A stretch of 64,000 nt of DNA from Paraspadella gotoi. Its lineage: Eukaryota > Animalia > Chaetognatha. Positions 16,846 through 46,302 of the stretch are shown one piece after another (the stretch's first letter is position 1; each line of letters begins with the position of its first letter). The DNA is taken from contig CM119266.1 in assembly GCA_051294375.1 (NCBI GenBank), positions 27,229,596 to 27,293,595 of the forward strand, written 5' to 3'. A program made the translations under genes and the position numbers. Below the pieces are notes generated by a model. That model was given only the letters and a program-made list of their open reading frames with translations. It had not been told where the DNA came from and did not search any database.

Positions 16846-16978
16846 GCAGGGACCTGCTATGTCATTATCTTGTAAGAGTGATGGAGGCCTTAAACCACCA
16901 AAGCCTGTCCAAAGTCAGGGGCAAGATAGCTTATTTATTAAATGAATGGATAATTTTTATATTGGTTGTACCAATTTC

Positions 16979-17041
<63 letters not shown>
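16846..17041 (+). mobile_element. Family-D twister-bearing short element with (TAA)n tail
   Basis: About 138 bp identical to 40372-40509, followed by a (TAA)n tract. Confidence 0.85.
16866..16928 (+). ncRNA. Twister ribozyme, type P5, no P3 (family D); predicted cleavage 16891/16892
   Basis: TATCTTGT-AAGA-GT-GA-TGG-AGGCCT-T^AA-AC-C-AC-C-AAA-G-CCTG-TCCAAAGT-CAGG-G-GCAAGATA. P5, P2 and P4 pair; TGG pairs with CCA in L4; AC pairs with GT in L4. Confidence 0.8.
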
Positions 17042-17042
<1 letters not shown>

Positions 17043-18111
17043 TAAAATAATAATAATTTAATTTAATTGAATATCTATATTCATATCTAGTGAGCTGCTG
17101 AGCAAAAAATTAATTCAACGTAATTTCTCTGTTTATAAATGTAATCGTATTTTCCTTCATCGACGATATGTTGATAATCGCAAAGTCATCGTTCCTCCTC
17201 GTCGCATTTAATCAGCGACGCTTCTTCACCTACGAAATTTATAATATGAAATTTAAATCTAATCGGTAACATCTCTTTATATATTCATATTCATATATTA
17301 ATTAATTTAAAAATTTTCTTTGTTAACAGAGGTTTAAAACATAAATGTAATTATAAACTAAACTTTTTAATATAAAACAATTTAAAAATATAATAAAACA
17401 AGTAATCATGTAACTTTCACAATACATAGACTCATAGTCATAGTGTTTCAGTCAATAATTGTCCTCTGCCAACCACCCCCCCCCCCACTTTCAGTCTTGC
17501 ACCCCGATTCCGCATCTCACCCCCGCCACCCAACTTCCTGCCCCCGTTGTGTTTCCCTTCATTATTGTCGCGGTCGTCGGCCTCTTCTTCGTCTTTGTCT
17601 TCGTCGTCGTCGTCGTCGTTGTCGTCGTCGTCTTCATGGAGGTCACCGCCCGATAAAATATACGTCCGGAGATTATATTGCGTCAGACTTTAGATAATAT
17701 GGCTCGAATCAATTTATAATTTTTTTATATTATTAAGGACGTCGTAGTCCAAAAAAAAAAGAATTTTACAACCAAAATAAACTGCCTGAGATGTCAAAAA
17801 TATCTTAGGACTGGCGACAACAACAAGACCCAAAAAGACGACATCCTCTCCCACGACCTCTGTGCTCCTTCCCTCCCCGGAATCTCGTCATTCGACGTCC
17901 ATGATGAAAATCCGCAGACAAAAGGCGTCTCAACCGAACTCCGTCGCCGGATTAAGTATCTCGATAAAAAGTTTCCGGCGGAAAATGAAACGGGAGATGA
18001 ATTTGGGATCCGAACGGAAAGAGAATGAAGAATGAATTGGGATGAACGATAGAATGGAAACGAATGGAGAATTGGTGAATGAGTGAATTGATTAAGTAAA
18101 TGATGTAATGA

Positions 18112-18327
18112 TAAGTGTTAATGACAGAACCGTTCAATATATAAGCAGTTCCTGAGCTTCGGATCAGGTTGTAACACCTAGTTACAGGCGGGTTAAGCGC
18201 CCCGTCCCTCTTAACTGCTCGGCGGCCACCGGGCTAGAACCCCGGATCTTGGGGTTGGGAGGCGAATGACTTGCCTCCGGCACCAATGGCCGCTGATGGA
18301 GTGTTGGTGGATTTTAGTCCACCATAG
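18112..18327 (-). mobile_element. Family-B element: hairpin + tRNA-Gly-like module (18222-18293) + type-P5 twister (18145-18218)
   Basis: Minus strand TGGTGGACTAAAATCCACCA...GCGGCCA-TTGGTGCCGGAGG...CTCCCAA...CCGGGGTTCTAGCCCGG-TGGCCGC-CGA-GCAGTTAAGAGGGACGGGGCGCTTAACCCGCC...TCCGAAGCTCAGG...TGAACGGTT. Confidence 0.85.
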
Positions 18328-19939
18328 TATTAAAAAATTTTAATTAATTTAAAAAAAAAAAACTGAAAATACAGTCAAGTAAAGACGAATAAATTTTACA
18401 AAAAAAGCCAGTGAGGAAAAAAGTGTAATGACTTTTGCATGTAATTAATATTCGATGAATTTTTAAATAAAGAAGATTCAATATATGTCGAGAAATAACT
18501 CAGAAAAATACAGTACTAATCGTAATGTGTTTTGAATAAAAAGTCGAGAAATGACTTAGAGATTTAAGGAACTTGAGATTTTTTTGTTCGTGACGCTTCA
18601 TTTTAAATTTTCTGTGGGCCGAGATCCGGAAAAGCGATTTGCCCCTGTCTTCCGATTTTCACTAATCGGCCATTACACTGAAAGTCGCTCCTCGTTTGTC
18701 GTCTTTGTCGTCTTCATCCTCATTCTTCGTTGTCGTCGGTGTCAGATAATGGAGAGCCGCTGCCGTCTTCGTTAAACGTCGTCGTTATCGTCGTCATCTT
18801 CGTCGTCGCTGACCTTTTTAAAAGAAAATATTTTATCATCACCTCGGAAAGACAGTTTCCTGTCGTCGTTGTCGTTTGTCGCCGAAGTTGTACTATTGTG
18901 GTTATCATTTTAATTATCTTCGTCGTCGTTGTCGTCATCGTCATCGTCGTCGTAATATGCATACTGCATAGTCGTCGTGACCATTACCTTTGGAGGAGAC
19001 TCGTTTTACTTGGAATTGATGGCTCCTTCTTTTTGGGCTGTTGTCTAAAGAAAAGAAAAGAAAAGAAAAGAAAAGAAAAGAAAAGAAAAGAAAAGAGAAG
19101 AGAAGAGAAGAGAAGAGAAGAGAAGAGAAGAGAAGAGAAGAGAAGAGCAGAGCAGAGCGGAAAGAGCTTTGACTTTGAGTAGAAAAATTACAAAGTGCAG
19201 AGCCTTTAATCATATTATTATTAATATAGAAATTAAATTAAGTTTTTCAACTATAACTACTACCGGCCATTGTATATAAGCAGAGGATCTGCAACGAAAA
19301 CGTAAAAAAGTATCGTCGAAAATTTTTCCACGCTCCTGAAAATCCCGACAATTCTGAGTTCCTACTTTACGGCGACTCCTCGGCTCCACGCCTACAAATG
19401 CTCGTCGTTTTCGTTGTAAAAAGGATTTGATGACAATGGTCGATTCGTCTTTGTCGTTTTTATTACCGTCACAAATGTCGTTTTCTTCCTCAGCCTTGTC
19501 ATTCTTTTTTCCCTATATTGAGTCACCTAACTTATTTTCTCATTAAACCATAGAGTAGAATTAGTAGAATTAAAGTAATGTCTTAAAATTTAGTTAAACT
19601 AGTTATGAGTAATTTAAACTTTCGTACAAATGAATCTCCGAGAAAAGATTCATTTATTAAATTATAAGATATAGTTGCTTTTGTTATTTTACTTAAACTC
19701 TTTCTTCTTTTTTATTTCTTTTCCTTCTTTTCTTCCGCCATCTTTTTCTCTTGAAAAAAGGTTCTTTCGGTCGATGCACCTGCGACGAATAAATGCATTT
19801 CTTTGGATTTATTTTATTTTCTTGTCTTGTATCAAATTTCTGAATTCAGATAAAGGAGTCAATACTTAATACAAATGCTGTTTTAGTTTAATTTCATGAA
19901 AAGGTACTATACAACTTTATTCAATGTCAGAGAATATTG

Positions 19940-20053
19940 ACTGAAAGCTTGAAGAGGCCTTAACATAAACACAGGCCGTCTAAAGTCAAGTGGAAGCTAA
20001 TAGCTAATTTATTGTATGAATAGATAAATTTTTTTTGGTACCACTTTCATATT
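19940..20053 (+). mobile_element. Diverged/deleted family-D-like element (duplicate at ~26190-26305)
   Basis: GAGGCCTTAA...TCTAAAGTCAAG and a tail ATGAATAGATAAATTTTTTTTGGTACCACTTTCATA resemble family D, but the core is disrupted. Confidence 0.55.
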
Positions 20054-20388
20054 CCACTTGGAGCAGCATCCAACTGGTCTTTTCCTTTTCCTCCTTCGCC
20101 TCCAATTCTGTTTTGCGGCGGCAACCAACTGATGGCATCGATTGATGGCACCGTTTCCGCCACCAACTATTTCCCTTTGAATTAGAGACGAGGAACGGAC
20201 AATAAAGATTCGGCCCCGCGGTCGGTTCGGAAGAAAAGGGGGGAGAGTTGGGGGGAGGCGGAGGAGGGATAAGAGGGAAGGGGAAAGGAAATGGTTAGAG
20301 AGAAGACTAGAGTAGAGTAGAAAAGAAAGTCGAGAACCTTTTAAAGGGACCTAGGAAGTCGAGAGTCATTCCTAGAAATAGAATAGTA

Positions 20389-21000
20389 CTATCTAGGAAA
20401 AAAGTTAGAGACATTTTTTTTTAAAAGTTCATTTATTCAATAAAAAATATACAAAACATGGGTAAACATTCTCAATATTTGGTATGCCCTCCCTCGGCAT
20501 CGACCACTGCCTGCATTCGTCTGGGCATGCTCTCGTAAAGCGAATTTGAGGTACGAAGGTGAAATGTTTTTTCCACACCTTTAGCGCAATTTTTTTCAGC
20601 CCCGATGTTGATGTTCCAAGTCTATTGCTGATGATTGTTGCGTCTTTCCCTCTTTTCTCAGAGCTACAATTGCACCTTATGAACCAAAGAGAGGGGCTGT
20701 CTATTCGGCATAACCAAATTTAAAAAATGAAAAAAATAATTAACTCAATTTGAAATAAAACAAATAACTCAATACCAAGATTGTGGAAAACTAAGGCGAT
20801 TTTTTCCGCCATTTTTCACTTGAGGTAGCAATCTTATTTTGCCTCTAACTTCTATACGGTTGGATCTACGAAAAAATGGAAAGGGAGCACTGAAATGAAA
20901 TTTAGTGTAGAATCTGAAACATCCTGATTTTTTATAAAATCGAGCAAGTTTTCGAGTAGATATCCTCAATTAAAATGTTTCTAACTTTTTTCCTAGATAG
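20389..21000 (-). mobile_element. Non-autonomous Tc1/mariner internal-deletion derivative
   Basis: TIRs CTATCTAGGAAAAAAGTTAGA(G/A)ACATTTT with TA on both sides. The minus strand encodes the Tc1 transposase C-terminus LYESMPRRMQAVVDAEGGHTKY* joined to an N-terminal MPNRQPLS...AIVALRKEGKT fragment. Confidence 0.9.
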
Positions 21001-21941
21001 TAGAATAGCGAGAAATGCCGTTTTGCAAGGAGTCAGATTGCAGTTAAAGTTAAAAAATCAGAAGTCGTAAATTAATATGGATATCTAGCTTTTGAACCCC
21101 GTCACTATCCTATGATATACATATCTATGATAAATATCTTTTGCTAAAAGTTTTGTTAGCCAAAATATAAATCGTTTGCCCCGCACTGTATTCTTTTTTA
21201 TAGGCGTAATCAGTAAATAAAGATTCGTCTGATCTTTTATCATTAAACTGAAACCTCAAGACGCGCCTCCACCGATTAATTTTTAACCCGACCCACAGCT
21301 CCTTCCACACCATGCCCCCCACACCCCCTCCACACCCCAACGTCATCGCCCACGATTCCTCTTGTCCTCGCGAGATCAAAAGGTGAAATGGAGATAAATG
21401 AAATTTGGCTCAATCATTATCGGGATTTATTCTCTCGCCCACTCTTCATCAAAAAAAAAGAAGAGAGGGAGAGAGAGGAGAGAGAGAGAGAGAGAGGGAG
21501 AGGGGTTAAGTCGAGTGTGGCATTTTTGATTTTTAAATATCATAGTTTGTGATGAGGGATTAAAATACTTTACCTATTTCATGTAAATAAATTAAAAAAT
21601 TAAAGATATTAAATCATTGGTTGAGGAATAAAAAACGTTGCGCGGAGATGAACAGTCATTTTATTAAAAAAGTATCTGGGTTGAAAAAGAAAATTCCGGG
21701 CAGAATCTAGCAACGATTTATTTAATAGAAGCAATAAAACCCGGAGCATGAAATTCGCAGTTCGGTTTAAGCGAGAATCCTTTTTTCAGAGCGCAGTTCT
21801 GTGGCCTTTTTAATTGTGGCTTTTGTTTTTCTTTTTCTTTAAANNNNNNNNNNNNNNNNNNNNNNNNNATGAAGAGATCAGGGGCAAGAGAGCTTATTTA
21901 TTAAATGAATGGATAATTTTTTATTTGGTTGTACCAATTTC

Positions 21942-21972
<31 letters not shown>

Positions 21973-21978
21973 TATATA

Positions 21979-22016
<38 letters not shown>

Positions 22017-23096
22017 TAATTAAATAATATAATTTAATTTAATTGAAAATATCTATATTCATATCTAGTGAGCTGCTGAGCAAAAAATTATTCAAACGTA
22101 ATTTCTCTGTTTATAAAGTAATGCGTATTTTCCTTCATCGACGATATGTTGATAATCGCAAAAAGTCATCGTTCCTCCTCGTCGGCATTTAATCAGCGAC
22201 GCTTCTTCACCTACGAAATTTATAATATGAAATTTAAAATCTAATCGGTAACATCTTCTTATATAATTCATATTCATATTATTAATTAATTTAATTTTCT
22301 TTGTTAACGGAGGTTTAAAAACATAAATGTAATTATAAACTAAACTTTTAATAATAAAACAATTTAAAAATAATAATAAAAAAACAAAGTAATCATGTAA
22401 CTTTCACATACAATAGACTCATAGTCATTAAGTGTTTCAGTCAATAATTGTCTCTGCCACCCCCCCCCCCCACTTTCAGTCTTGCACCCCGATTCCGCAT
22501 CTCCACCCCCGCCACCCCAACTTCCTGCCCCCGTTGTGTTTCCCTTCATTATTGTCCGCGGTCGTCGGCCTCTTCTTCGTCTTTGGTCTTCGCGTGCGTC
22601 GTCGTCGTTGTCGTCGTCGTCTTCATGGAGGTCACCGCCCGATAAAATATACGTCCGGAGATTATATTTGCGTCAGACTTTAGATAATATGGCTCGAATC
22701 AATTTATAATTTTTTTATATTATTAAGGACGTCGTAGTCCAAAAAAAAAGATTTTACAACCAAAATAAACTGCCTGAGTAATGTCATATCTAGGACTGCG
22801 ACAACAACAAGACCCAAAAAGACGACATCCTTCTCCCACGACCTCTGTTGCTCCTTCCCTCCCCGGAATCTCGTCATTCGACGTCCATGATGAAAATCCG
22901 CAGACAAAAGGCGTCTCAACCGAACTCCGGTCGCCGGATTAAGTATCGTATAAAAAGTTTCCGGCGGAAAAATGAAACGGGAGATGAATTGGGATCCGAA
23001 CGGAAAGAGAATGAAGAATGAATTGGATGAACGATAGAATGGAAACGAATGGAGAATTGGTGAATGAGTGAATTGATTAAGTAAATGATGTAATGA

Positions 23097-23313
23097 TAAG
23101 TGTTAATGACAGAACCGTTCAATATATAAGCAGTTCCTGAGCTTCGGATCAGGTTGTAAACACCTAGTTACAGGCGGGTTAAGCGCCCCGTCCCTCTTAA
23201 CTGCTCGGCGGCCACCGGGCTAGAACCCGGATCTTGGGGTTGGGAGGCGAGATGACTTGCCTCCGGCACCAATGGCCGCTGATGGAGTGTTTGGTGGATT
23301 TTAGTCCACCATA
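23097..23313 (-). mobile_element. Family-B tRNA-like/twister element (duplicate of 18112-18327)
   Basis: Near-identical copy inside the duplicated segment. Confidence 0.85.
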
Positions 23314-23559
23314 GTATTAAAAAATTATTTTAATTAATTAAAAAAAAAAACTGAAAATACAGTCAAGTAAAGACGAATAAATTTTACAAAAAAGCCAGTG
23401 AGGAAAAAAGTGTAATGACTTTTGCATGTAATTAATATCGATGAATTTTTAAATAAAAAAAGATTCAATATATGTCGAGAAATAACTCATGAGAAAAAAA
23501 TACAGTACTAATCGTAATGTGTTTTGAATAAAAAGTAGAGAAATGACTTAGAGATTTAA

Positions 23560-24858
23560 GGTCGGGATCACTCAATTCAATTATAATTTAGGCTAAAACC
23601 AAGCATCGGATTTCGAAAGGAGAGCTCCCTGACGATTCCGAAAAATGTATTCACTTTACTATTTTTTTCAAAGCGTCATCGTTTTTTCGATTTTTTTTGT
23701 ACTATATAAAATAAAAAAACCTATTTGAAGAGTTTGCAGATCAAACGGTAAGGCGGTTTCTCATGAAATTTGGCATGAATTATCTTTAGTCACGGGACTC
23801 CAATTCTATGAAAGATCTTTCAAAATTTGCCTTCCTTCATATGAAAATTTATTATTTAGTCAATTTTTGGATTAATTCCTTGATATCTTTGAACGAAAAA
23901 AAGTTTTCCAAAAAAAGCGCTCATAGAATCTTCCCACCTTTCCTTTCTTGCCCAGATATTTTTTTTCTTCAAGAAGAGTCCCAGTTGAGCTGCAACTCTC
24001 TTCGTTTTTAACTTCTCTTCGTCAAGAAAGTTAAATTCTGTACTCATACTCTGCAAGATTCACCACAACATACACAAACAGGATGTGATGATGGGTTGTT
24101 CAACGCGATTCTTAAAAAAAAACGGCTTACGTTTTTAAATTCTTATCCAGTTTTTTGTGGACTAAACGCCACAACCGTTCTCAGCGCCATTGTGCTGGAG
24201 GCAAGTCATTCCTCAACCCAAATCGGTTCTAGCCCGGTGTGTACTGGCATTAGAGGACGGCGCTAACGCGCTGTAACATGGATGTTAAGCCTGATCTCGA
24301 AGTCAGGGACTGCTTACATTGAACGTTCTATCACTAACCATAAAATAATTACTGTCTTTCAGTTTGATTTTTTTTTTTCAGCAAGATTCCCTAGAAGAAA
24401 TAGGGCAACTATAAACATTTACATAAAGTAAAAAGTCAAATGAAATAAATTGGATAAGTTTTTAACCTCATTAAAACTCATAAAAGCATAAAAACCCGTC
24501 TGGAAAAATGTGTAGATAGTTATTTTAAGACTTATTAGTGATACAACTCCAAGTACGGTTACTTGCACAAAAGAAAATTGAAATATAAGAAGTAGAAATT
24601 GGAGCTTGCTGTAAAGAATCAGTTTTTAAGTTAAAAATTTGGTTGTAAAAATTTACCTTACATTTTAAAAAATATTTTTCTCTTGAAAATCTAGTTTTTG
24701 CCGAAGAAAAGAATTTGTTTAAATTTTTATGAACATTTTAGGTAGATTTTTAAAAGTTTTCAAAGATTTTTAATAGAAAACCTCTTATGGGACGCGAGAA
24801 ATGAATTAATATACATTAAATTGAGATTTCTACAATTTTAGGTTGAGTGATCCTGGCC
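23560..24858. mobile_element. 1.3-kb non-autonomous TTAA-targeting DNA transposon (Kolobok-like termini)
   Basis: TTAA|GGTCGGGATCACTCAA ... TTGAGTGATCCTGGCC|TTA. The empty site GATTTAAGGAA is visible in the other copy at ~18561. Termini are purine GG rather than the piggyBac CCC. Confidence 0.75.
24155..24340 (+). mobile_element. Degenerate family-B element nested in the TTAA transposon
   Basis: GTGGACTAAAC...AACCGTTCTCAGCGCCATTGTGCTGGAGGCAAGTCATT...GAGGACGGCGCTAACGCGCTGTAAC...GAAGTCAGGGACTGC...TTGAACGTT. Confidence 0.75.
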
Positions 24859-26640
24859 TTAGGAATTGAGAATTTTTTTTGTTCGTGACGGCTTTCATTT
24901 TAAATTTTCTGTGGCCGAGATCAGGAAAAGCGATTTGCCCCTGTCTTCGATTTTCACTAATCGGCATTAAACTGAAAGTCGCTCCTCGTTTGTCGTCTTT
25001 GGTCGTCTTCATCCTCATTCTCGTTAGTCCGTCGGTGTCAGATAATGGAGAGCGGCTGCGTCTTCGTAAACGTCGTCTTATCGTCGTCATCTATCGTCGT
25101 CGCTGACCTTTAAAAGAATATTTTATCATCACTCGGAAAGACGTTCCTGTCGTCGTTGTCGTTTGTCGCCGAAGTTGTACTTGTGGTTATCATTTTTAAT
25201 TATCTTCGTCGTCGTTGTCGTCATCGTCATCGTCCGCCGTAATTGCATACTGCATACGTGTGACCTTCCTTTGGAGGAGACTCGTTTACTTGGAATTGAT
25301 GGCTCCTTCTTTTGGGCTGTTTCTAAAGAAAAGAAAAGAAAAGAAAAGAAAAGAAAAAAGAAAGGAAAAGAAAAGAAAGAAAAGAAAGAAAAGAAAAGAA
25401 AGAAAGGAAGAGAAGAGCAGAGCAGAGCGGAAAGAGCTTTGACTTGAGTAGAAAAATTACAAAGTGCAGAGCCTTTAATATATTATTATTAATATAGAAA
25501 TTAAATAAGTTTCAACTATAACTACTACGGCATTGTATATAAGCAGAGGATCTGCAACGAAAACGTAAAAAGTTCGTCGAAAATTTTTCCACGCTCCTGA
25601 AAATCGGACAATTCTGAGTTCCTACTTTACGGCGACTCTCGGCTCCACGCCTACAAATGCTCGTCGTTTTCAGTTGTAAAAAGGATTTGATGACAATGGT
25701 CGATTCGTCTTTGTCGTTTTATTACCGTCACAAATGTCGTTTTCTCCTCAGCCTTGTCATTCTTTTTTCCTATATTGAGTCACCTAACTTATTTTCTCAT
25801 TAAACCATTAGAGAGGAATTAGTAGAATTAAAGTAATGTCTTAAAATTTAGTTAAACTAGTTATGAGTAATTTAAACTTTCGTACAAATGAATCTCCGAG
25901 AAAAGATTCATTATATTAAATATAAGATATAGTTGCTTTTGTTATTTTACTTAAATCTTTCTTCTTTTTTATTTCTTTTCCTTCTTTTCTTCCGCCATCT
26001 TTTTCTCTTGAAAAAAGGTTCTTTCGGTCGATGCACTGCGACGAATAAATGCATTCTTTGGATTATATTTATTTTTCTGTCTTGTATCAAATTTCTGAAT
26101 TCAGATAAAGGAGTCAATACTTAATACAAATGCTGTTTTAGTTTAATTTCATGAAAGGTACTATACAACTTTATTCAATGTCAGAGAAGTATTGATGAAG
26201 CTTGAAGAGGCCTTAACATAAACACAGGCCGTCTAAAGTCAAGTGGAAGCTAATAGCTAATTTATTGTATGAATAGATAAATTTTTTTTGGTACCACTTT
26301 CATATTCCACTTGGAGCAGCATCCAACTGGTCTTTTCCTTTTCCTCCTTCGCCTCCAATTCTGTTTTGCGCGGCAACCAACTGATGGCATCCGATTGATG
26401 GCACGTTTCCGCCACCAACTATTTCCCTTTGAATTAGAGACGAGGAACGGACAATAAAGATTCGGCCCCGCGGTCGGTTCGGAAGAAAAGGGGGGAGAGT
26501 TGGGGGAGGCGGAGGAGGGATAAGAGGGAAGGGGAAAGGAAATGGTTAGAGAGAAGACTAGAGTAGAGTAGAAAAGAAAGTCGAGAACCTTTTTAAAGGG
26601 ACCTAGGAAGTCGAGAGTCATTCCTAGAAATAGAATAGTA

Positions 26641-27246
26641 CTATCTAGGAAAAAAGTTAGAGACATTTTTTTTTAAAAGTTCATTTATTCAATAAAAAAT
26701 ATACAAAACATGGGTAAACATTCTCAATATTTGGTATGCCCTCCCTCGCCATCGACCACTGCCTGCATTCGTCTGGGCATGCTCTCGTAAAGCGAATTGA
26801 GGTACAAGGTGAAATGTTTTTCCACACTTTAGCGCAATTTCTTTTCAGCCCCGATGTTGATGTTCCAAGTCTATTGCTGATGAATGTGTGCGTCTTTCCT
26901 CTTTTCTCAGAGCTACAATTGCACCTTATGACCAAGAGAGGGGCTGTCTATTCGGCATAACCAAATTTAAAAAATGAAAAAATAATTAACTCAATTTGAA
27001 ATAAAACAAATACTCAATACCAGAATTGTGGAAAACTAAAAGGCGATTTTTTCCGCCATTTTTCACTTGAGGTACAATTCTTATTTTGCCTCTAATTCTA
27101 TAGTTGGTCTAACGAAAAAAATGGAAAGGGAGCAACTGAAATAAGAATATGTAGAAATCTGAAACATCCTGATTTTTTATAAAATCGAGCAAGTTTTCGA
27201 GTAGATATCCTCAATTAAAAATGTTTCTAACTTTTTTCCTAGATAG
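26641..27246 (-). mobile_element. Tc1/mariner deletion derivative (duplicate of 20389-21000)
   Basis: Same TIRs, TA flanks and transposase C-terminal remnant. Confidence 0.88.
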
Positions 27247-27920
27247 TAGAATAGCGAGAAATGCCGTTTTGCAAGGAGTCAGATTGCAGTTAAAGTTAAA
27301 AAATCAGAAGTCGTAAATTAATATGGATATCTAGCTTTTGAACCCCCGTCACTATCCTATGATATACATATCTATGATAAATATCTTTTGCTAAAAGTTT
27401 TGTTAGCCAAAAATATAAATCGTTTGCCCCGCACTGTATTCTTTTTTATAGGCGTAATCAGTAAATAAAGATTCGTCTGATCTTTTATTCATTAAACTGA
27501 AACCTCAAGACGCGCCTCCCACCGATTAATTTTTAACCCGACCCACACGTCCTTCCACACCATGCCCCCACACCCCCTCCACACCCCAACGTCATCGCCC
27601 ACGATTCCTCTTGTCCTCGCGAGATCAAAAGGTGAAATGGAGATAAATGAAATTTGGCTCAATCATTATCGGGATTTATTCTCTCGCCCACCTCTTCATC
27701 AAAAAAAAGAAAGAGAGGGAGAGAGAGGGAGAGAGAGAGAGAGAGAGGGAGAGGGGGTTAAGTCGAGTGTGGCATTTTTGATTTTTAAATATCATAGTTT
27801 TGTGATGAGGATTAAAATACTTTACCTATTTCATGTAAATAAATTAAAAAATTAAAGATATTAAATCATTGGAAAAAGTTTAAATTGTGATTCGGCAACG
27901 AATTTATTTAATAATAATAA

Positions 27921-27961
27921 ACGGACATGTTTCGGTTCGGTTTACGAACCTTCTTCAGCGC
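27921..27961 (-). ncRNA. Minimal type-I hammerhead ribozyme (Penelope pLTR type)
   Basis: Minus strand GCG-CTGAAGA-A-GGTTCG-TAAAC-CGAACC-GAAA-CATGTC^CGT has a full core, 6-bp stem II, palindromic ACATGT stem III and 3-bp stem I, then AATAAATTCGTTG. A garbled duplicate lies at ~21710-21795. Confidence 0.85.
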
Positions 27962-29290
27962 AGTTGTCCTTTTTATTTCTTTTTTTTTCTTTTTCTTTTT
28001 TGATTTCCGAATCATTTTCTCTTCTTTCCTTTTTTTTCCCTTTTTTTATTTTCAAAGTTAGTTTTAATTTTTTTTTCAGTACATGGACCCCATCATTTTT
28101 ATAAGGTTTTGAAAAAGGAAAGATTTTCTTAATTTTTACAAATGTATGAGTCTGTAAAACAAGAACAAGAAATTAAATTTTAAAAACAAAAATATATTTG
28201 GAATCAGCATGATGTCCGCTTTCAAACCCTTTATAGTTTTTAAATATTTTAATTAGTTTTAAGACTATAATATATTTTTATAATAATGAAAAAATATTTT
28301 TGGTATTTAAAATAATTTTTGTAAATTTTATTTGTTATTTATTAAAACTGCTCTTGTTTAATGTATCATTTTGTATAAAAAAGGAATCAATTACCTTGGA
28401 TATTTTCAGAATACTTGTAAATATTTTTGACTCAATTAATAATAAAAACAAAAAAAATTAAATTAATTCAAAAATGTTATTACATCATTATGTAGGTCTC
28501 GTTTCAGAGTATTTATGAGCAAAAAATGTTAGGGCGAGCTTCATTAATAACTGCGCTAGAGCAAATATTGTAAAAAAATTTTTAGGGTGCTGAGCGCAAT
28601 TTTTTTGAATTTTTAAAAATCCGTCAAAGCCAACCTTCCTGCATCCATTACTCATAGCTGAGCTGATTCCAACTCCTAGTTTGAGAGATATCCACGCCCT
28701 CCAGTTTATCGAGTAAAGATAAAAGGAGCTGTACCTTTTGTGTCTTTCTTTCTCATTCGTTCTGTTCTTTTCTCTTTTCTTTGTCCTCTCTTTGCTCACC
28801 TCTCTTTTTTTCTCTCGGACTCGGCGGATCGAATCGGAATTTCATGTCTTTTCGACACAAAAGATCGAAAAAATCTCCCCTTTGATGACGACCGATCGGA
28901 TGTATTTCGCAAATGGGCAATGAGTTATTTATAGAAAGACAGAGACTAAGACCAAGATATATATTACATAGTGGAGATCTCCATTACATAATTACAAAAT
29001 GAATCTCTTTTATTTTTATGTATTGATATCTATCTGTAAAGATTGGGTAAAAAAACTTAAATTGTAAGCTTAAGAATGTTTCAATTAAAAAAGATAAATT
29101 TAACTCCGTACAGTAAATAAATGTGACGTTGATAAAAAAATTTAAATATTTTTTTAATTACGTTTCCACTTTCCTAGTTTTCTGTTTTTCGCTCAATTGA
29201 AAAAAAATCTTTGCGGTGCCTTTTATTTTTATTCGATTTTCTAACTTCTAATTAATGCAAAAAACAGTCGAGATTAAGGGACTCTTTAAC

Positions 29291-29331
<41 letters not shown>

Positions 29332-33689: not shown

Positions 33690-33985
33690 CCACTTGCACG
33701 ATTCCATCAAAACTTCATATCCATTTCAATCACACAGTTTCCTACCCACACACAAAATTTCATACCAATCCATCCATCCAATCACGAGTAATTGGTGTTT
33801 TTTGCTAATGTGGGACGGACGGATGGATGGACGGATGGACATCGCTTTTTTTTGCATAAATTATCATAATTCGATGTTCTGACATGATATAAATGAGTGC
33901 CCGACAATATTGAGGGGGCGGACTGATGGACCGACAAAGTGAATTATAGAGTCTGGATCTGCTGAAAGCAGATCCGACTAAAAAT
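33690..33985. mobile_element. Dispersed non-coding element with GGAC/GGAT microsatellite and terminal hairpin (Helitron/Helentron-like, tentative); second copy ~51620-52000
   Basis: Shared ATCACACA..TTCCTACCCAC..CAAAATTTCAT..CAATCCATCCATCCAATCACGAGTAATT...GGATCTGCTGAAAGCAGATCCGACTAAAA. Confidence 0.55.
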
Positions 33986-34952
33986 TAATAGAATCAATAG
34001 CTAGTGTTATGTCTCGAATAGATGGAAAAAAACCTCGTCTAAAAATTCGATCGGGAAGTGGGGTAACTAAGGCTTACCAATGGCATCCTCCACGGAATGC
34101 AGGTTGCCGAAAGGGTACAGATAATCTGGACATACTGACATGATAATCATGTGTAATTGTGAAATGGGGGCAGTAAAGAAATCTAAAAAATTCGATCATT
34201 AAGTCAGGCTCCACTCCCGCTTTGGGTATTTTAGACAATGATTTTGAAATTGGAATAATTGTCATTTATTTTCATCTCGCTGATAAAAATAGGACATTCT
34301 TCAGTTAAAAAAACGGTTGGCTATAGTTATCTTTTACTTGTAAGGTAGAGCACACTAGGTGAATTTCTATGCCTTCAAAATACGGTAAGACATGATTTCT
34401 TTTGCGACAAACAATCAAATCTCGTTATCTGCTTAATTTAAGAAAAAAGTACAGGCGATTTTTCATGGTAAGAGAAAAAGATGACACATAATCTTTTTGT
34501 TTCTTACACTCTCTTTTTCTTTTTTCTTCTTTCTTCCTTCTTTTCTGTCACTCTTTCTTTCCTTTAATCCTCCTCTCTTCCCTTTCCTCTCTCTTCCTTT
34601 TTTTTTGTCTCTTTTCCTTTACTATTTCTTTCTTTATCTCAGTTTTTCTTCTTTTTCTCCGATTTTGTCTCTCCTTTCCTACTATCTCTTCTTTTCTCTC
34701 CTTCTCTTGTTCTCAAACTCCTCTTACTCATTTTTTTATACTTTCCAATCCGCTCCCTCCCCCTCTATCAGCTTCCTTTTTTCACACACATTGTCTCTCT
34801 CTCCTCTTCTCTTTTTCTCCCGGTCACTTATTATATCTGCGTTTACATTATGTTAAATATATGAAAATGTTTAAAATGTAACGTAGTAAAAAAAATTTTG
34901 GGTAGCGCAAGATTTTATTCTAAGTTTGGTTGCCTAGCAGATTTAGTAAATC

Positions 34953-34990
34953 GACAGATTTTGCGGAAAATATTTTCCGCAAAATCTGTC
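34953..34990. repeat. Perfect 38-bp palindrome
   Basis: GACAGATTTTGCGGAAAATATTTTCCGCAAAATCTGTC. Confidence 0.95.
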
Positions 34991-37635: not shown

Positions 37636-38013
37636 AAGGCTATAATTATATATAGTACTATCCTTATAAAATCGAAAAATTTAAATATAGGCTTTTCTTA
37701 ATTTTGATTACAGATTTGAATTCCTCGTCAAAAGTTGATAAAATATAAATCATTTTTAAAAATTCTTTCATTAAGTGGGTTAAAAATTAAAAAACTATAT
37801 TTAATATATAACATTTTAATTTTCAGCTTAAAATATAGGTTTTTTTATATATTTTATTAACTTAATGAAAGAATTTTTAAAAAAGAGTAATATTTCTTTA
37901 TATCAACTTTTCATGACAAATCCAAATCTGCAAAAAAATCTTACAAAAAACTATTTTGAAATTTTAAAATTAATTGGATTAGTACTACTAATAGTAGTAG
38001 TATAAATATAGCC
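37636..38013. mobile_element. Imperfect palindromic MITE-like element
   Basis: Inverted blocks (CAGATTTG..AAAAGTTGATA..TTTTTAAAAATTCTTTCATTAAGT / ACTTAATGAAAGAATTTTTAAAAA..TATCAACTTTT..CAAATCTG). Shares TAGTA(C/A)TATCCTTATAAAATC with 43095. Confidence 0.55.
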
Positions 38014-38321
38014 TACTGCGTAAATTATAAAATTTATTATAAATTTTTTTATACATAAATGGGCACTTTTTTCCATCGATACCCCCTTGCTGCGGCTCCT
38101 GAAGCAGCTGACTAAAACACACGCACAAAACTAGTCTCTTTTGCTACTTCCATCGTCGCTTTATGAGTAACTCCCTTCGTCGTCGCTCTCACAGTCGCAA
38201 CTGCTTCCTCCATCGTTCAAATTATCGTTGTGGTTTCTGTCGATCTCGATCCTGACCGATGTGTCAACAAGCAAGACATAATTTCTTTTTGTAAAAGTAG
38301 TTAAGTGAAAGACAACCCTAT

Positions 38322-38420
38322 TCCCTAACCTTAATCACTAACCTTAATCCCTAACCCTAATCCCTAACCCTAACCCTAATCTATCCCCTAATCTAACCTT
38401 ATCCCTAACTGAAACCCTAA
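38322..38420. repeat. Degenerate interstitial (CCCTAA)n telomere-like tract
   Basis: CCCTAACCTTAATCACTAACCTTAATCCCTAACCCTAATCCCTAACCCTAACCCTAATC. Confidence 0.7.
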
Positions 38421-39094
38421 ACAATTAATACATGGTTAAAATTATTGTTGTTTTTGTCAATCCCGATCTTGACTGAGTCATCCAGCCAGAGAGAGAGAGA
38501 GAGCAAGAGAGATTCGCTGCTCCGTCATACGGCAAGGGGGCAACGAAGAGCATTTCGCCCATAAATGTTCATTTATATAATGTTGTTCGTCCCTCACTTT
38601 TAGAATTTTAATTAAAGTTAAATTGATAATTTTTACTACGCTTTAGTGACCAGTGACCACTGACCAGACAGACTGAGCCGAAAAGAGTAACCGCGCGCCG
38701 GCCCACGACGTCTCAGACGCCGCTTCTAAAATACAACGCCAATCTTAAATCGAGACGACGCCGTTTCTCCGCCGCCGATGAACGCCGGGACGACGTGATC
38801 TCATTCGGGAGTCCAGAGAAGAGAGGAAGAAAGGAAAGAAAAGGGAGGAAAGGAAAAGAAAAACAACACGAAAAGGGGAAAAAAGTGAAGACAAAATGGA
38901 AAAGAGTAAAAAAAAGGGAAACAAACTCGTCGATAAAAGACTAAATGTCGCCGAGGGATCGATCGTAAGGACGACGACGACGACGACGACGAGGAAAACT
39001 TTTGAGGGTCATGACAATGAAACCGAGGAGACGATGGGGAAGAAGATGACGAGGATAATGATAATGACAAGAACCATCAGTTCCAGGATGTGAT

Positions 39095-39155
<61 letters not shown>

Positions 39156-39603
39156 TTCCGATAAATCTTTTCTCATAAACCCGAGTTGACGTTGGAAAGA
39201 AAATAAATGTAATAAAATGTTATAACGACGGCATCGATCATAATGTTACAGTCGATAAAGGAGAGAGACTGAGAGTGTGACTCGAATGAAATCTCAAAAA
39301 AAGAAAAAAAATCGCTATTTTCTTTTTTTTTTCTTCTTCTTCTTTTTTTGTTTTGAAGGGCTGAGATGAAGACGACGACGACGACGACGACGCAACTGTT
39401 CGAGTGTCATACTTATTTCGTGCGAGACACCGTTCTGAATAATAAACAGATCAAAATGGGAAAATTAACGGATTCGCTTAAAATGAAATAAAAACAAAAA
39501 TTTAGTTTTTATCGATTTTGTCCGAGTCTCGTTTTGGTTAATTTTCTACTTTCCCAGTTCTTAACTATCCAGTATCCATGACTCCATCCCACGTTTTTCT
39601 TAC

Positions 39604-39684
<81 letters not shown>

Positions 39685-39757
39685 AGTCCTGAATTTCTAT
39701 GAGAAACATTATTCTTGTAAATTTACTTACCGTAAATCCGTAAATTCTTCTCTCTCT

Positions 39758-39814
<57 letters not shown>

Positions 39815-40391
39815 CTCTTGTCATTTATCGATCTTTTTTGTGGCACCGAAACGCATTTTTCTCTTCCTATCTTTTTTTCCCTTCTCCCTTCCTTTCACTT
39901 CCTCTTTCACCCTCTCTCTTTCCTCTCTCCTCTTTCTCCTTCTCCCATCATTTCTATCCTCTGATTCTTTTTAAACCAATCGATGCACAAAGTAACATTT
40001 ATATTCAACAATATTTCTATTTAAATATTCCCTCTTAGTCTCATCTTTCTCCTACTCCTCCTCCACCCCCCTCCCTCCCTCCCTCCGCCAACACTTTCCA
40101 CCCCGAGTTTTTGAGGAGAACTCCGTCTCAATTATTGGGTCATAGTTTGGGTCACATCTCGGGTCAACGCTCGTCGGCCCGCGATCGGTTTTTGGGGCAA
40201 ATCTATTTACACGTCTCAGTCATCGTCGTCATCGTCGTCGTCGTCGTCTTTCTTTCTGTTTCTCTTTTCTTAAGTCTTTCATCCGATACTCGTCGTCGTT
40301 GTCGTTGTTGTCGTCGTCGTCGTCGTCCTCGTTGATATGCAATTTTATACATATACTGTTATATATATATAGCAGGGACCTGCTATGTCAT

Positions 40392-40454
40392 TATCTTGTA
40401 AGAGTGATGGAGGCCTTAAACCACCAAAGCCTGTCCAAAGTCAGGGGCAAGATA
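40392..40454 (+). ncRNA. Twister ribozyme type P5 (family D), in element 40372-40512 flanked by (TA)n; predicted cleavage 40417/40418
   Basis: Identical to 16866-16928. Confidence 0.8.
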
Positions 40455-40972
40455 GCTTATTTATTAAATGAATGGATAATTTTTATATTGGTTGTACCAA
40501 TTTCATATATATATCTCACATGAAACTTATGGTTTCTGCTTTTCTTTCGATTTTTTTTACCACTTGGTGGCAGTTATTGTTTTGTAATTTGTTTACCTTT
40601 CGCTGTTTTTAATTTTTATTTTTAAAATTTAGTTTTCTAAGCGTGTCATATTTTGAACTATTCGTCTTCGTCATCGTAGTAACTTTCTCGATCATGACGC
40701 CTAATGGCCGACGACATGGTTGCCGTCGTCGTCGTCGTCGTCATATATTCGTCCTCTTCATCTTCATCTTCGTTGTCGTCGTCGTCATGATCGTCGTCAT
40801 ATTCGCCAGTCTTCGATATGATCAAAGTTCGTGATCCATCAGCCTCTCCATTTCTCTTTCCATTTCGCGGCGCCGATCTTCTCTTCAGTTTTTCTCCTCG
40901 CATACAAAATTAATTATGTACAATATTAAACATTGTGAAGAGACATTAATTATTGTTATGTGTTCAATATAA

Positions 40973-41046
40973 GCAGTCCCTGAGCTTCGGATCAGGCTGT
41001 AACACCGTGTTACAGGCGGGTTAAGCGCCCCGTCCCTCTTAACTGC
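40973..41046 (-). ncRNA. Twister ribozyme type P5 (family B, cleanest copy); predicted cleavage 41023/41022
   Basis: GCAGTT-AAGA-GG-GA-CGG-GGCGCT-T^AA-CC-C-GC-C-TGTAAC-ACGGT-GTTACA-G-CCTGA-TCCGAAGC-TCAGG-GACTGC. All stems pair, as do both pseudoknots (CGG/CCG, GC/GC). Confidence 0.85.
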
Positions 41047-42471
41047 TAGGCGGCCCACTATGATCGAAGTGAACGTTAGAATCGGAAAAATTATACAATG
41101 GCATATTCAGATAGCTTAACCAGAGTAATTCTTAAAAACTTTAGAGGTTCTTCTCATAAAATATTAATATTTCCAAAAAGGACAAAAATGTAACATTTTA
41201 TTTTTTTACGATTCCTAAAGATGACCCGAACGCTACAATATTTTTTTTTAGCTTGTTTTAATTTTTTTCCCTCTCAAATACGGTAAAACAAAAGTTTAAA
41301 GAGCAATTTGATCCAATCAGTTAAGCGAGGAAGTTAATAGTGCTAACGTGTTTTTAGCTACTAATTTTTGAAAAGGATAGAGGAATCAAAATAGAGATTG
41401 AGTAAAATTATTAATTAAAGTTTACAAGATGTTTTTTTTTTGGCATTTTTGTTCTTTTAAAGAAAATGTTTGTTAGGTTCAATCCATTTATTAAATTTAA
41501 GACATCAAAAAGTTTAACTAGATTTAATGTAAAAATAACGATTTTTTTCACAGACTGCTTAATAAATCCAAAAATGTTTTCAGCTTGATATTAAACAACT
41601 GAAAACATTTTTGGATTTATCATTTTTCATATTTATAGAAGATTCTTACAGAGAATTTCGCCTCACTGTGATCGTCAAATAAGAATTTCCCAAAAGTCTA
41701 AACGTTTATTCTCGGTAACTGACGTGGCAAATATGAGACAAATGTAATAAATATTTTATCTTAAATGATTTTGAAATTTCAAATGTCAAATTTCTAATCA
41801 ATATTTTTACACAATCAATTCTTTGAAGTCCAATATTCATGATTACTTATATTTTTTTCCTCTCTCTCTGTCTCTCTCTGTCTCTGTTCCTTTATTATAC
41901 CAAATTTACAATTATTTTATTTAAAAAAAAATTACTTACGTCTTTGTCATGAAGACAATTTAGTTATCTTAACCACTTCAAAATAATTTACTTAGTAAAT
42001 AGTATCGAAGTGTTAGAAAAAAAATATATGAAAATCATTTTGACATTTACTCATTTTGCGGATCGTTGCGGATGAAATCCGGAACACATCAAGTGCGTTA
42101 TAATATTAATCATTATATTTAATAAGAATGGTAGTGATTCCCCATGATTCCCTAAATATTCTAAGCTAGTTTTCAAAAACTCAGATACAGTAAAACCTTT
42201 TTAGAACAAATTTGTATTTTATCCATACTAGGTATCCAGTTGTTTATCAAGATTTTAAAAAAAAGTAAATTCATCATAAAGTTCCTGGAATATAGCTCGA
42301 CAAAGTGAGTCTGAAATAGAGAAAAGCCTTATATCTCCTAAAGAAATGATTTTTGACAACTGATATTGCTTGAGAGGTTTCCGATGATAGTCACTAATTA
42401 ATTAAAAGCATATATATTTTTGTACGATGAACTAACCTTATTCCGATAAAAAAAATTATTTTGATGATAGT

Positions 42472-42890
42472 GCGGCCACCGGGTTAGAACCCCGGACCTT
42501 TGGGTTGGAAGGCGAATGACTTTCCTCCGGCACCAATGGCCGCTGATGAACGGTTGGTGGATTTTAGTCCACCATACATCCCCCCTACCGTAGGGAGAAG
42601 TCTGTTGCTTCTCTTCAGTGAATTGTTGTTGTTGGTGGAAAGTGCGTCACCAAGTTGATGCATGTCGCCTGATGTGTTGTTGGCGGAAAGTGCATCGCCA
42701 GGTTGAGGCATGTTGCCTGAAAGTGTTGTTTTTGCTGTTGTGTTTGGAAGTCGACTTGTGTTTGGAAGAGACTATGGCAACAGCCGGGTTGCCTGTGATG
42801 CCCCTTTGGGATGGGGCATCTCACTGTTGGCTTTGGGGGCTTCCGACTCTCAGTGACACCTCCAGTCACTGGCGCGGTTACCCTAGGACG
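42472..42890 (-). mobile_element. Composite element: family-A twister (5'-truncated) + spacer + family-B hairpin and tRNA-like module
   Basis: The minus strand runs continuously from GTCCTAGGGTAACCGCGCCAGTGAC...TCGGAAGCCCCCAAAGCCAAC through a CAA-rich spacer into TGGTGGACTAAAATCCACCA and GCGGCCA...TGGCCGC. Confidence 0.85.
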
Positions 42891-43049
42891 CTTTACAGGG
42901 ATGCTCTAACGATATTTATAATATTTTTTGAAAGGTTTTATTATTTATATTACAGAACTCTTAATTTTTACCTTGTTCCGTAAAGATTGAGCGATGGAAC
43001 AATATTTTTTGCTGCCTTTGTATATGTAATAAAAAATAATTAAGCTATT

Positions 43050-43505
43050 TTTCAAAAAAAATTTGTATAACAGTATCATTAATTGAATTTTCTTTATAGT
43101 AATATCCTTATAAAATCATAAAATTTTTAAATCATATTTTTTTAATTTTAAGAACAGTTTCGGATTCGCCGGAAAAAACTGAAAAACTTTTGTAAGATAT
43201 GTTACATGATATTTTTATGTTAAAGTTGCGAAAAATGATCAAAATGTTTCATCATATAATAGTTTTTACTACAAAGTGTGAAAAAGTGGAGAATTTGACC
43301 TTTTTTTGCATTTTTGATGCTGAAGACATTAAAATTTTTAATAACATATTGTATATTTTTGATATAACTTTTTATGAAGAATCAGAATCTTTAATAAAAA
43401 TTTAAAAAAAATTATTTTGAAAATTTATGATTTTATAAGGATATTACTATAAATATATTGTAATTAATGATATTGTTCCCCAACAATATAAGCAAAATTT
43501 TTTTT
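43050..43505. mobile_element. MITE-like element with inverted repeats
   Basis: TATAGTAATATCCTTATAAAATCATAAA (~43095) versus TTTATGATTTTATAAGGATATTACTATA (~43424). Confidence 0.6.
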
Positions 43506-43625
43506 GTACTCCTTAATTATACTATGTTTGTTCACTCAAATAAAATTTATGTTCCCCAGTGCTCAACTCTATTACTCATCATAGCCTGACGAAAGTCAGC
43601 TGCAAGTTAGCTCGTTTATTGAATG

Positions 43626-43865
43626 AACGCACTTTCCACCAACAACAACAATTCACTGAAGAGAAGCAACAGACTTCTCCCTACGGTAGGGGGGGATGTA
43701 TGGTGGACTTAAATCCACCAACCGTTCATCAGCGGCCATTGGTGCCGGAGGCAAGTCATTCGCCTCCCAACCCAAAGGTCCGGGTTTCTAACCCGGTGGT
43801 CGCCTAGCAGTTAAGAGGGACAGTGCTCAGGGACTGTTTATATTGAACGGTTCTGTCACTAATAC
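43626..43865 (+). mobile_element. Family-B element with spacer tail, tRNA-like module and internally deleted twister
   Basis: ACGCACTTTCCACCAACAACAACAATTCACTGAAGAGAAGC... matches the spacer of 42472-42890. It continues into the tRNA-like module, GCAGTTAAGAGGGAC|AGTGCTCAGGGACTG (core deleted) and TTGAACGGTTCTGTCA. Confidence 0.85.
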
Positions 43866-43904
<39 letters not shown>

Positions 43905-43906
<2 letters not shown>

Positions 43907-44510
43907 AACAAACATTAGGAATACCAATTGGACTAGATTCTGGTCAAATATTGCCAATATGTTGTTATTTTATTTTGAATCAACATATATGGAAAATATG
44001 TCAAAAAATATCTAGGAATCACTAGACAATTTAAAAATTTCAAGATATATTGATGACCTTTTTTCGGCAGATTTTAAGGATTTTAAAACACATCTTGATA
44101 AAATATCCAGCAGCACTTACTGTCAATAAATCTAATAGTATAGACACAAATGTAGATTATTTAGACATTAACATCAAATCAGAAAACAAAAATCTTACTC
44201 TTTCTGTATATGATAAAAGGGATTCCTTTTCTTTTGAGGTAGTGAACTACCCATTTATGGACAGTTGTATTCCTAGAAAAGCAGCATTAGGTGTATTTAT
44301 TAGCCAATTAATTAGGTATGCCAGAATATGTTCAACATTTATAGATTTTTCATCGAGAGCAATAAATATTAAGCAAAAAATTACAAAGTCAGGGTTATAT
44401 ATTTAAGGACTTAAGAAAAATGGGAATTAAATTTTTTAATAATTATAAGGAAATACTAAAAAATATAATTTTACTGATGTTAATCTATTTTTTTAAAAAG
44501 ACTATACATG
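43905..44510 (+). pseudogene. Decayed Penelope-like element reverse transcriptase, C-terminal part (Naiad/Chlamys-like signature)
   Basis: QTLGIPIG (RT motif B), SRYIDDLF (YIDD at 44046-44057), then after a frameshift DYLDINI...VYDKRDSFSFEVVNYPFMDSCIP...GVFISQLIRYARICS. Frameshifts and stops are present. Confidence 0.85.
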
Positions 44511-46221
44511 ATAGTTCCTAGTAAAAATATTAAATAATAACAAAATTAAACCACTTAAAATAATAATAATAATAATAATAATCATCAACATACTATTTAT
44601 TTAACTTATTTAACTTATTTAACTCTTTGATGTAACTTATTTTTTAAATTATACTAATTAACTTTATGTTAACTTTACATTAACATTCCCTTGATTATTA
44701 AAATATTATTTAACTAATTTTTTAACTTATTTAATTATTTACAAAGTACAAATTATTGCAAAACCTTAATAAATTTCCCTAAAATTAATAATGCTGTGAT
44801 ACCAGGGCTTTGGTCTGTGTAAGATAAACATTAAAAATATATCCTTAAAAAATAGGATAAGCAACAATGAAGGATCACCATTTGGTGATGGCTCGCCTAT
44901 ACCTGGATATTGGGATTAAAGAGCCGAAATCCATGAAGGGTATAGGTTCAAAACTGATGACCTTCCCATTGTATAAACATAATAGATAAAAGATATTCAG
45001 AAATAGAATAATTAAAAATTAGGATAAAGGAAAAAATTATTTTCATTAAAGTATTTTAAAATTATATCATGACATAAAGGTGCCCCTATAGACCTTTCCC
45101 AGTATGTATCCCTATCAGAACATACAATTCTACTTTGTAGTCTTATCCCTATTAGTTTTTTAAAAAAATCATATATAACTTTGGTCCCCCATCAAAAAAT
45201 TATCCATTCCCACCCCTTTCTGTTCAGCCTATTAGATATTATGATTTTTCATTAATGACTTTCTAACAGGAATGATGTGTGATATCTATTAGAAAACTAG
45301 GACAGATTGTAATCTAACCTTGTGTTGTGTAGATGCTCCCTCTATTTCCAGAAGACAACACTGACTTCCCATTCCCAAAATGAGTTATTAGATATAATGA
45401 TAAGTAAAAAATTTTAAGAAAGCAATATATATATATTTAAAGAATATAGATTAAATGGTAAATCTTTCATAAAATATAAAAATAAAAAATAAAAAATAGT
45501 GAAACAAGTAATTTGAAAATTTTCATATCAATAATTACTGTCTCATCAAATGGATAATTTGTAATTTGTACTATTAGTATATATTAGAATAAGTTATTCT
45601 ATAATACTCCGAACAAGGCTGAAATTTTTTTGTTACATGATATAAAACGCTAGCATGAAGAAAAAGTTAGTTTTGTGGTATGACGAGGAAATGATATTTG
45701 TACTAGAATTATGGAGGGAGAATTTTTCAGGTTGAGTCGAGGAATGAAATAATCTGGATCCGATGAGTGAGAAAGAGCAAAAAAAGGTAATATTTACTAA
45801 TTGTCGAAGTCCGGAAAAGAACGACTTTCAGATACATTGAAATAAAATATTGTAAAGTGGTAAAGCGGGGTTTTCAAGAGAAGGGGAATGCAAAGAAAAT
45901 AATCCCAAAAGGTAGGCAATGAGAAAGGAGGTGGATTAAAAGAGAAGAAAAAGGGAGCAGCGCCTCTCGCGGATGTCCTCGTCATTATCATAATGGGAAA
46001 AGAAAACATATGAACACGAGTCCGAGGGAAAAAAGGGAAATCCGTTGAGGGCAGGGAGAAAAGGGAGGAAGAAGAAAATTCCTGAAAAAGATATGATGGG
46101 AGAAAAGAAAATAATGGAGGAAAAAAAAATCGCTCGCTGCGATCGGGGAAAGTGAAAAGGAAATTGCAGAATGAGGAAGAAATGTGTAAGTTATAAGGCC
46201 CATTGGGTTGGGCATCTCACT

Positions 46222-46302
46222 GTTGGCTTTGGGGGCTTCCGACCCTCAGTGACGCATCCAGTCACTGGCGGGGTTACCCTAGGACGGTCTCGCTCTGCCA
46301 AC
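46222..46302 (-). ncRNA. Twister ribozyme type P5 (family A), in element 46198-46425; predicted cleavage 46276/46275
   Basis: GTTGGC-AGA-GCGA-GA-CCG-TCCTAGGG-T^AA-CCCC-GC-C-AGTGAC-TGGATGC-GTCACT-G-AGGG-TCGGAAGC-CCCC-AAA-GCCAAC. Pseudoknots CCG/CGG and GC/GC pair; P2 is partly mismatched in this copy (CCGC in the other two). Confidence 0.75.

Follow-up and report, generated by a model that had tools for sequence, protein, structure and literature searches.

The hammerhead ribozymes of Penelope-like retroelements whose helix III is a palindrome cleave weakly as dimers and not at all as monomers in the case tested in PMC4209133. Naiads, the Penelope-like retroelements described in PMC8557442, are reported there to prefer (TA)n, to attain copy numbers in the tens of thousands and to be without canonical hammerheads, and the main text of that paper does not once use the word 'twister'; the known links between twister ribozymes and retroelements, including the one described in PMC8501958, concern the 5′ ends of other elements. 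Here we analyse a stretch of 64,000 nucleotides (nt) from the chaetognath Paraspadella gotoi (assembly GCA_051294375.1, contig CM119266.1, forward-strand positions 27,229,596–27,293,595), hereafter the window, which is repeat-rich and animal-like and in which four repeat families, A to D, carry the fold of a type-P5 twister. On balance we favour the reading that A–D are P5 twister folds in likely tails of Naiads or of their short derivatives, in which the P1 helix has been reduced to a palindrome of 6–8 nt that is predicted to pair between copies.

Results

Four repeat families carry a type-P5 twister fold

Judged from their letters, D, B and A fold as type-P5 twisters whose pseudoknots covary, and their self-cleavage is a prediction. 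The folds follow the order P5, P2′, GA-NNN, P1 segment, UAA, P2, T2 strand, an optional P3, P4, L4, P4′ and P5′, with UAA at the predicted cleavage site and GA-NNN opposite it in D, B, A and C, as in the L1 loop of a twister. The 3-base-pair (bp) pseudoknot T1 covaries between the families (UGG/CCA in D, CGG/CCG in B and C, CCG/CGG in A), as does the 2-bp pseudoknot T2 (AC/GU in D; GC/GC in B, C and the family A copy at 46284); P4 has 4–5 bp, P5, which holds the termini, has 6–9 bp, and P2 has 4 bp in C or 3 bp and a bulge in D and B. A relaxed structural descriptor gave 11 matches in the window, seven of them family members and four AT-rich sequences outside the families, and the same descriptor gave 0, 3, 0, 3 and 0 matches on five locally shuffled windows; the family A copies fail it, having an imperfect P2 and a 3-bp P4. 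At its gathering threshold, Rfam yielded no match in the window. Family D aligns over the full length of the Rfam Twister-P5 model (RF02684) with 14 interior P1 positions deleted, and the intramolecular P1 hairpin of the type is absent from the predicted pairing (expected intramolecular pairs 0.0–0.007). Families A–D are predicted to work like a P5 twister, then, but depart from it on two formal points, the hairpin at P1 and the score in Rfam.

In an exact search, the P1 segment between GA-NNN and TAA was found to be AGGCCU in D, GGCGCU in B and UCCUAGGG in A, all self-complementary, just as the original prediction for this DNA had it; in intact copies the segment lies directly 3′ of GA-NNN and directly 5′ of TAA. 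AGGCCT followed by TAA occurs at +16885 and +40411 (family D) and at +19955 and +26208 (a degenerate D-like family, E), GGCGCT with TAA at −18201, −23187 and −41029 (family B), and TCCTAGGG with TAA at +5397, −42888 and −46284 (family A), the last of which shifts the feature end first given, 46283, by one base. Family C has TGCCGT with TAA at −55769 and reads TGCCGGTCA in its second copy, at −55289. It had been set apart as not clearly fitting; the copy at 55769 does not fit (self-duplex −0.9 kcal/mol), and that at 55289 contains the self-complementary GCCGGT (−9.9 kcal/mol); by eye, TGCCGGTA, TGCCGGTCA and TGCCGT explain both copies with equally few edits. Independent contigs from run X9 read GGGGCGCTTAACCCGCC (8 records), in support of GGCGCT as the sequence of family B; noisy B copies have GGCGT (+47602) and GCGCC (−52353). 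Contigs aligned to 40340–47230 showed no variant within any P1 segment among 40 of 569 difference rows, which is a weak result.

The window looks like an indel-rich assembly. Its segment 16915–21620 (~4.7 kb) recurs at 21878–27872 with 94–95% identity and an N gap between the two, and because of this duplicated block the B copies at 18201 and 23187 are counted as one locus, as are the two E copies. More widely, near-identical blocks across N gaps at 16915–27872 and 60938–63498 (91–95% identity) are probably assembly overlaps. The copies of the five families are as follows (coordinates, strand, description).

16865–16929, +: family D type-P5 twister fold; P1 AGGCCT at 16885–16890; cut predicted between 16891 and 16892
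40372–40507, +: family D element, 5′-truncated, in (TA)n; twister 40391–40455, P1 40411–40416, sharp 3′ end at 40507
18106–18342, −: family B element; terminal hairpin, tRNA-shaped segment 18222–18293, twister 18143–18220, P1 GGCGCT at 18196–18201
23091–23329, −: duplicate of the preceding B copy, within the repeated block; P1 23182–23187
40972–41047, −: family B twister, element 5′-truncated; P1 GGCGCT at 41024–41029
47464–47686, +: family B element; P1 GGCGT at 47602–47606, short by one base
52243–52421, −: noisy family B copy; P1 GCGCC at 52349–52353
24157–24374, +: very noisy family B copy
43699–43870, +: family B copy that has lost its twister core, then (TA)n
46222–46302, −: family A twister; P1 TCCTAGGG at 46277–46284; P2 imperfect in this copy
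5257–5506, +: family A element; P1 TCCTAGGG at 5397–5404; T1 strand minus one base
42774–42890, −: family A copy that breaks off immediately 5′ of P1 (42881–42888); spacer, then B 5′ part 42472–42576
55226–55307, −: family C twister (A-related); P1 TGCCGGTCA at 55281–55289, including self-complementary GCCGGT
55700–55790, −: second, noisier family C twister, 480 nt from the first on the same strand; P1 TGCCGT at 55764–55769
19930–20050, +: family E, degenerate D-related copy; keeps AGGCCT at 19955–19960; duplicate at 26208

The palindrome in P1 exceeds chance

That these segments are too short for a stable hairpin, as had been claimed, is borne out by the best hairpins they can form (+5.6, +4.2 and +2.0 kcal/mol for D, B and A, respectively); self-duplexes of the isolated segments reach −9.1, −8.3 and −11.0 kcal/mol. 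By exact enumeration, the joint chance that D, B and A are self-complementary from end to end is 4e-5 under the composition of the elements and 4e-4 under 90% GC, and with the outer hairpin pair(s) granted it is 2e-4 to 5e-3 for Watson–Crick centres and up to 9e-3 with G–U at 90% GC; these joint chances are not strict p-values, since the three families may share ancestry. Between D and B, the palindromes show one change that keeps the pair and another, two-sided one at the centre.

As a control, we scanned prokaryote genomes with P1 left free at 2–32 nt, which gave at least 127 matches, at least 48 of which passed the T1, T2 and P4 filters. Among the matches listed, each of the 48 prokaryotic P5 twisters that remained has a P1 hairpin of 12–32 nt (−1.1 to −24.1 kcal/mol) and none of them has a full P1 palindrome; seven phage P5 twisters agree with this control. 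The palindromy is real, as first noted, and it is beyond chance; it is absent from the prokaryotic P5 twisters listed and recurs, with other sequences, in the Naiad-linked twisters described below. A role of the palindromes at the DNA level was set aside on the reasoning that their sequence varies between families while the pairing stays.

The first phage scan had returned 120 loci with a single one past the filters, which proved to be two tandem type-P1 twisters. A phage contig (L074, 150–230; also L127 and L131) holds two type-P1 twisters back to back, ~50 nt apart. A phage scan for type P3 gave three loci, none of them suitable as a control, and a B-like pattern in viral contigs gave 30 loci with none past the filters.

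Related twisters lie behind Naiad reverse transcriptases

A scan of metagenomes with a core-only pattern returned at least 121 loci, which include D-subtype P5 twisters in at least three families and one relative; in all of these, P1 holds a pair of palindromes. Among the matches listed, L149, L173, L180, L186, L201 and L240 have the C-terminus of a Naiad-type reverse transcriptase (RT) immediately upstream, on the strand of the twister. L201 further shows a weak match to a selenocysteine insertion sequence (SECIS; 28 of 35 bits), an element that some Naiads share. Within the last 300–350 nt of 53 of the 54 published Naiad consensi, the twister fold with palindromes was seen by eye in six tails (Naiad-1_Movir, Mgal, Bpla, Mphi, Scon and Mmer), and tails of greater length may conceal others. 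The Bpla tail has a close relative in the largest metagenome family, which is not independent of it.

In these relatives P1 consists of two palindromes and a YAA linker, for example CCCCGGGG and AGCGCT in L178 or TGGGATCCCA and AACTAGTT in L201; the largest family has GGCGCT and an odd AATCTGATT, with 17 of its 39 copies carrying one of the two commonest P1 segments. Position-specific shuffling, a test chosen after the data had been seen, gave p values of 0.025 (L163), 0.003 (L178), 0.0008 (L201) and 0.007 (L180). The single palindrome of 6–8 nt in the window is the minimal form of this two-palindrome P1.

Another conserved tail motif with a covarying palindrome is shared by the Naiads of oyster, ark shell and hemichordate (PMC8557442, file S5), where the palindromes are CCTAGG, CCATGG, TCCGGA and TTCGAA.

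The repeats resemble tails of Naiad-type elements

Repeats A–D are probably the 3′ tails of Naiad-type Penelope-like retroelements, or short derivatives of them. A link to Penelope, which had been drawn by analogy, is now backed by RT evidence from Naiads. The window contains the following fragment, which is evidence that Naiads occur in this genome and is not joined to A–D.

43906–44493, +: C-terminal part of a Naiad-type RT, 5′-truncated and frameshifted

Its homologs are proteins of ~915 amino acids (912–918) with an N-terminal GIY-YIG and a C-terminal RT domain, the layout of Naiads, and the fragment maps to their C-terminus; PF01541 starts at residues 51–54 in five of the six homologs scanned, and the CxC and DKA motifs are visible. 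Pfam gave no match on the RT pieces of the window, no full Naiad element was found there, and no Naiad alignment to viral contigs was confirmed. With public contigs from this organism, depth in run X1 was 816,483 for D, 170,385–263,693 for B and 232,706–245,939 for A, four orders of magnitude above the single-copy bins (~27–48), although depth is not a copy number. Family D has a fixed 3′ end at 40507, where run X1 shows 344 loose ends, together with varied 5′ starts and flanks of (TA)n or (ATA)n, and copies at distant places are identical over 138 of 138 bases.

Behind the RT fragment, at +44888–44962, lies a hammerhead-like motif of unusual order (stem III and UA, GAAA, CUGAUGA), and by eye the same layout occurs in the tails of Naiad_Amil, Bfor, Obim and Ovul. 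The order recalls the type-SGC described in PMC10085705, but stem II does not follow CUGAUGA.

A core-swapped dimer is the proposed active form

Pairing of the palindrome between two copies is likely. In the mechanism that we propose, a transcript of a tandem insertion with two tails (one in the upstream pseudo-long terminal repeat (pseudo-LTR) and one at the 3′ end), or else two separate RNAs, would pair palindrome with palindrome. Each fold would then have its 3′ half completed by the 5′ half of its partner, in an arrangement that is nested throughout and has two active sites with a proper P1 for each. A lone or circularised unit would be without P1 and would tend to misfold, and cleavage at U/AA would be favoured in tandem RNA; such cleavage would trim the RNA of the element from read-through transcripts, a role that has been proposed for the Penelope hammerheads with palindromic stem III. 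With the twister helices enforced, the core-swapped dimer lies 11.7–13.9 kcal/mol below two active-like monomers, and P1–P1 pairing accounts for 8.6–10.2 kcal/mol of this. Free co-folding of D yields the core-swapped dimer (P1 pairs 0.99–1.0), and relative to the free monomer minimum, with pseudoknots not counted, the swapped dimer stands at −0.5 kcal/mol in D and −1.5 kcal/mol in C.

A number of observations weigh against this reading or parts of it. As to the fold, RF02684 scores D at 25.8 bits against a gathering threshold of 37.6, has no match to A, B or C at E values up to 10, and Rfam gives none for six animal-type twister loci. The palindromes of the relatives are less striking when position is left free, with shuffle p values of 0.006–0.13 for the most frequent two-palindrome variants of each family and 0.49–0.64 for three degraded copies. 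Within the window, no RT is joined to families A–D themselves, the RT fragment is followed by its hammerhead-like motif and not by a twister, and most twister copies are solitary, family C alone being in tandem (480 nt). Free co-folding of B and A proceeds without P1–P1 pairing (0.0 and 0.04–0.08), and their swapped dimers lie +3.9 kcal/mol (B) and +14.0 kcal/mol (A, a mutated copy) from the free monomer minimum, again without counting pseudoknots. Among published work, PMC5408937 describes a twister without P1 that cleaves at almost the wild-type rate, a large screen reported in PMC11662667 for type-P1 twisters only found P1 imperfections to be without effect, and for one Penelope element PMC11167929 reports that hammerhead cleavage is not needed for insertion in vitro.

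Because P1-less twisters cleave at near the wild-type rate, we hold a strict dependence of cleavage on pairing between copies to be somewhat doubtful, and expect instead that pairing boosts cleavage. In the fullest form of the model, which is offered as a tentative proposal, the twister of Naiads and of their short derivatives is obligately dimeric and core-swapped: P1 would exist only on pairing of two tails, and the RNA would cut in tandem transcripts and stay intact as a single unit.

The literature on P1-less twisters (PMC5408937, PMC11662667) speaks for a rather unlikely alternative, namely that A–D cleave as monomers, as active mini-twisters in which P1 is an unpaired linker, and that the palindrome is kept for some other RNA–RNA pairing step of the retroelement, such as bringing two templates together, be it for template switching or for a protein dimer. 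Truncated P1 variants are described from other retrotransposons (PMC8501958), a Penelope protein is predicted to dimerise (PMC11167929), and the different tail motif of oyster and hemichordate Naiads, with palindromes that covary by eye, suggests that palindromy may serve the element and not catalysis. The palindrome nevertheless fills the P1 position exactly, from end to end, its pairing rebuilds P1 beside the cleavage site, and monomers are predicted to misfold by 6–14 kcal/mol relative to the active-like secondary structure.

The palindromes might also be an incidental by-product of a shrunken P1 hairpin of 1–2 bp and a 4-nt loop held by the folded core, given that any hairpin is half palindromic and each family offers only two informative pairs, that GC-rich loops raise the joint chance to 0.005–0.009, that a 2-bp stem closed by a CUAG loop is possible in family A (best hairpin +2.0 kcal/mol) and that the family C copies disagree on P1. 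We consider this improbable, for among the prokaryotic matches listed 0/48 P1 segments are fully palindromic and 0/48 are shorter than 12 nt, and three further families repeat palindromes of other sequence and length. Least probable is that the high-copy repeats hold decayed remnants of folds that do not cleave, even though the folds score below the Rfam gathering threshold, P2 has only 3 bp and a bulge in D and B, and many copies in the window are damaged: the core letters of L1 and L4 are kept, T1, T2, P2, P4 and P5 covary between families, and the identity of distant D copies (138/138 bases) suggests recent amplification of an intact master.

Other features of the window

Directly before its twister, family B carries a 72-nt tRNA-shaped segment (−18222..18293 and +43732..43803; folding z −5.4 and −3.5). 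Its stems resemble an acceptor stem and a T arm and are spaced as in a tRNA, although ARAGORN found 0 genes in it and Rfam no tRNA match; B may be an element like a short interspersed nuclear element (SINE) with a Naiad-type twister tail. By eye, the terminal hairpin of family B resembles a motif at the 5′ ends of Naiads. A composite (−42890..42472 and +43627..43870) joins the 3′ end of A, a spacer and the 5′ part of B; this spacer, which has deep coverage, is found again ahead of another B copy, and a single element may thus hold two different twisters ~430 nt from each other. The window also has two hammerheads of the classic Penelope form, at −51785..51830 and −27920..27965, both minimal type-I ribozymes whose palindromic stem III is ACATGT. 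A long G-rich satellite of 70–90-nt units occupies 8500–15250; a spacer recurs in it, and inverted segments lie at either end.

Discussion

The palindromic P1 is a real, non-random feature of a known ribozyme, and gating by dimerisation is plausible. Our literature search, with subscription journals and bioRxiv supplements outside its coverage, found no paper with both 'Naiad' and 'twister' and nothing on natural twisters that are palindromic or dimeric, or on any twister in a Penelope-like element. If the obligate-dimer reading is true, a natural twister would be switched on by dimerisation in what would be the first such case, and the palindrome gate of the Penelope hammerhead would have been reached by convergence in a second class of ribozyme. 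A twister at the tail position with the same palindrome design suggests that these elements select for pairing of RNA tails and not for a ribozyme class, and the role of Penelope tail ribozymes becomes testable in a second class. The families also provide a simple natural scaffold for RNA cleavage gated by concentration or tandem arrangement, and point to a large twister group missed by Rfam.

Compared with the type-P5 twister of Rfam (RF02684, clan CL00120), the order P2′-GA-NNN-P1-UAA-P2-T2-P4-L4 and the T1 and T2 pseudoknots are the same, but P1 is an 8-bp hairpin with a tetraloop in the model and 12–32 nt long in prokaryotes, whereas here it is palindromic and 6–8 nt. The T-variant twisters of Schistosoma Perere-3 (PMC8501958) are likewise retrotransposon twisters with an altered P1; they are described, however, as type-P1 twisters at the 5′ end of the element that take the 5′ strand of P1 from target DNA, and 'palindrom' and 'dimer' occur 0 times in the available text of that paper. 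Naiads, as PMC8557442 presents them, share GIY-YIG and RT with the homologs of the window fragment, along with 5′ truncation, a fixed 3′ end, (TA)n and very high copy number, yet they are reported there without canonical hammerheads, and A–D are known here apart from any RT. The minimal type-I hammerheads of Penelope described in PMC4209133 and PMC6765202 match A–D in having the helix beside the cleavage site reduced to a palindrome, and their ribozyme lies in the tail or pseudo-LTR, the tail being the probable place of A–D as well. They belong to an unrelated ribozyme class, and the hammerhead needs stem III whereas the twister can lose P1, which is why dimer dependence does not transfer automatically from the one to the other.

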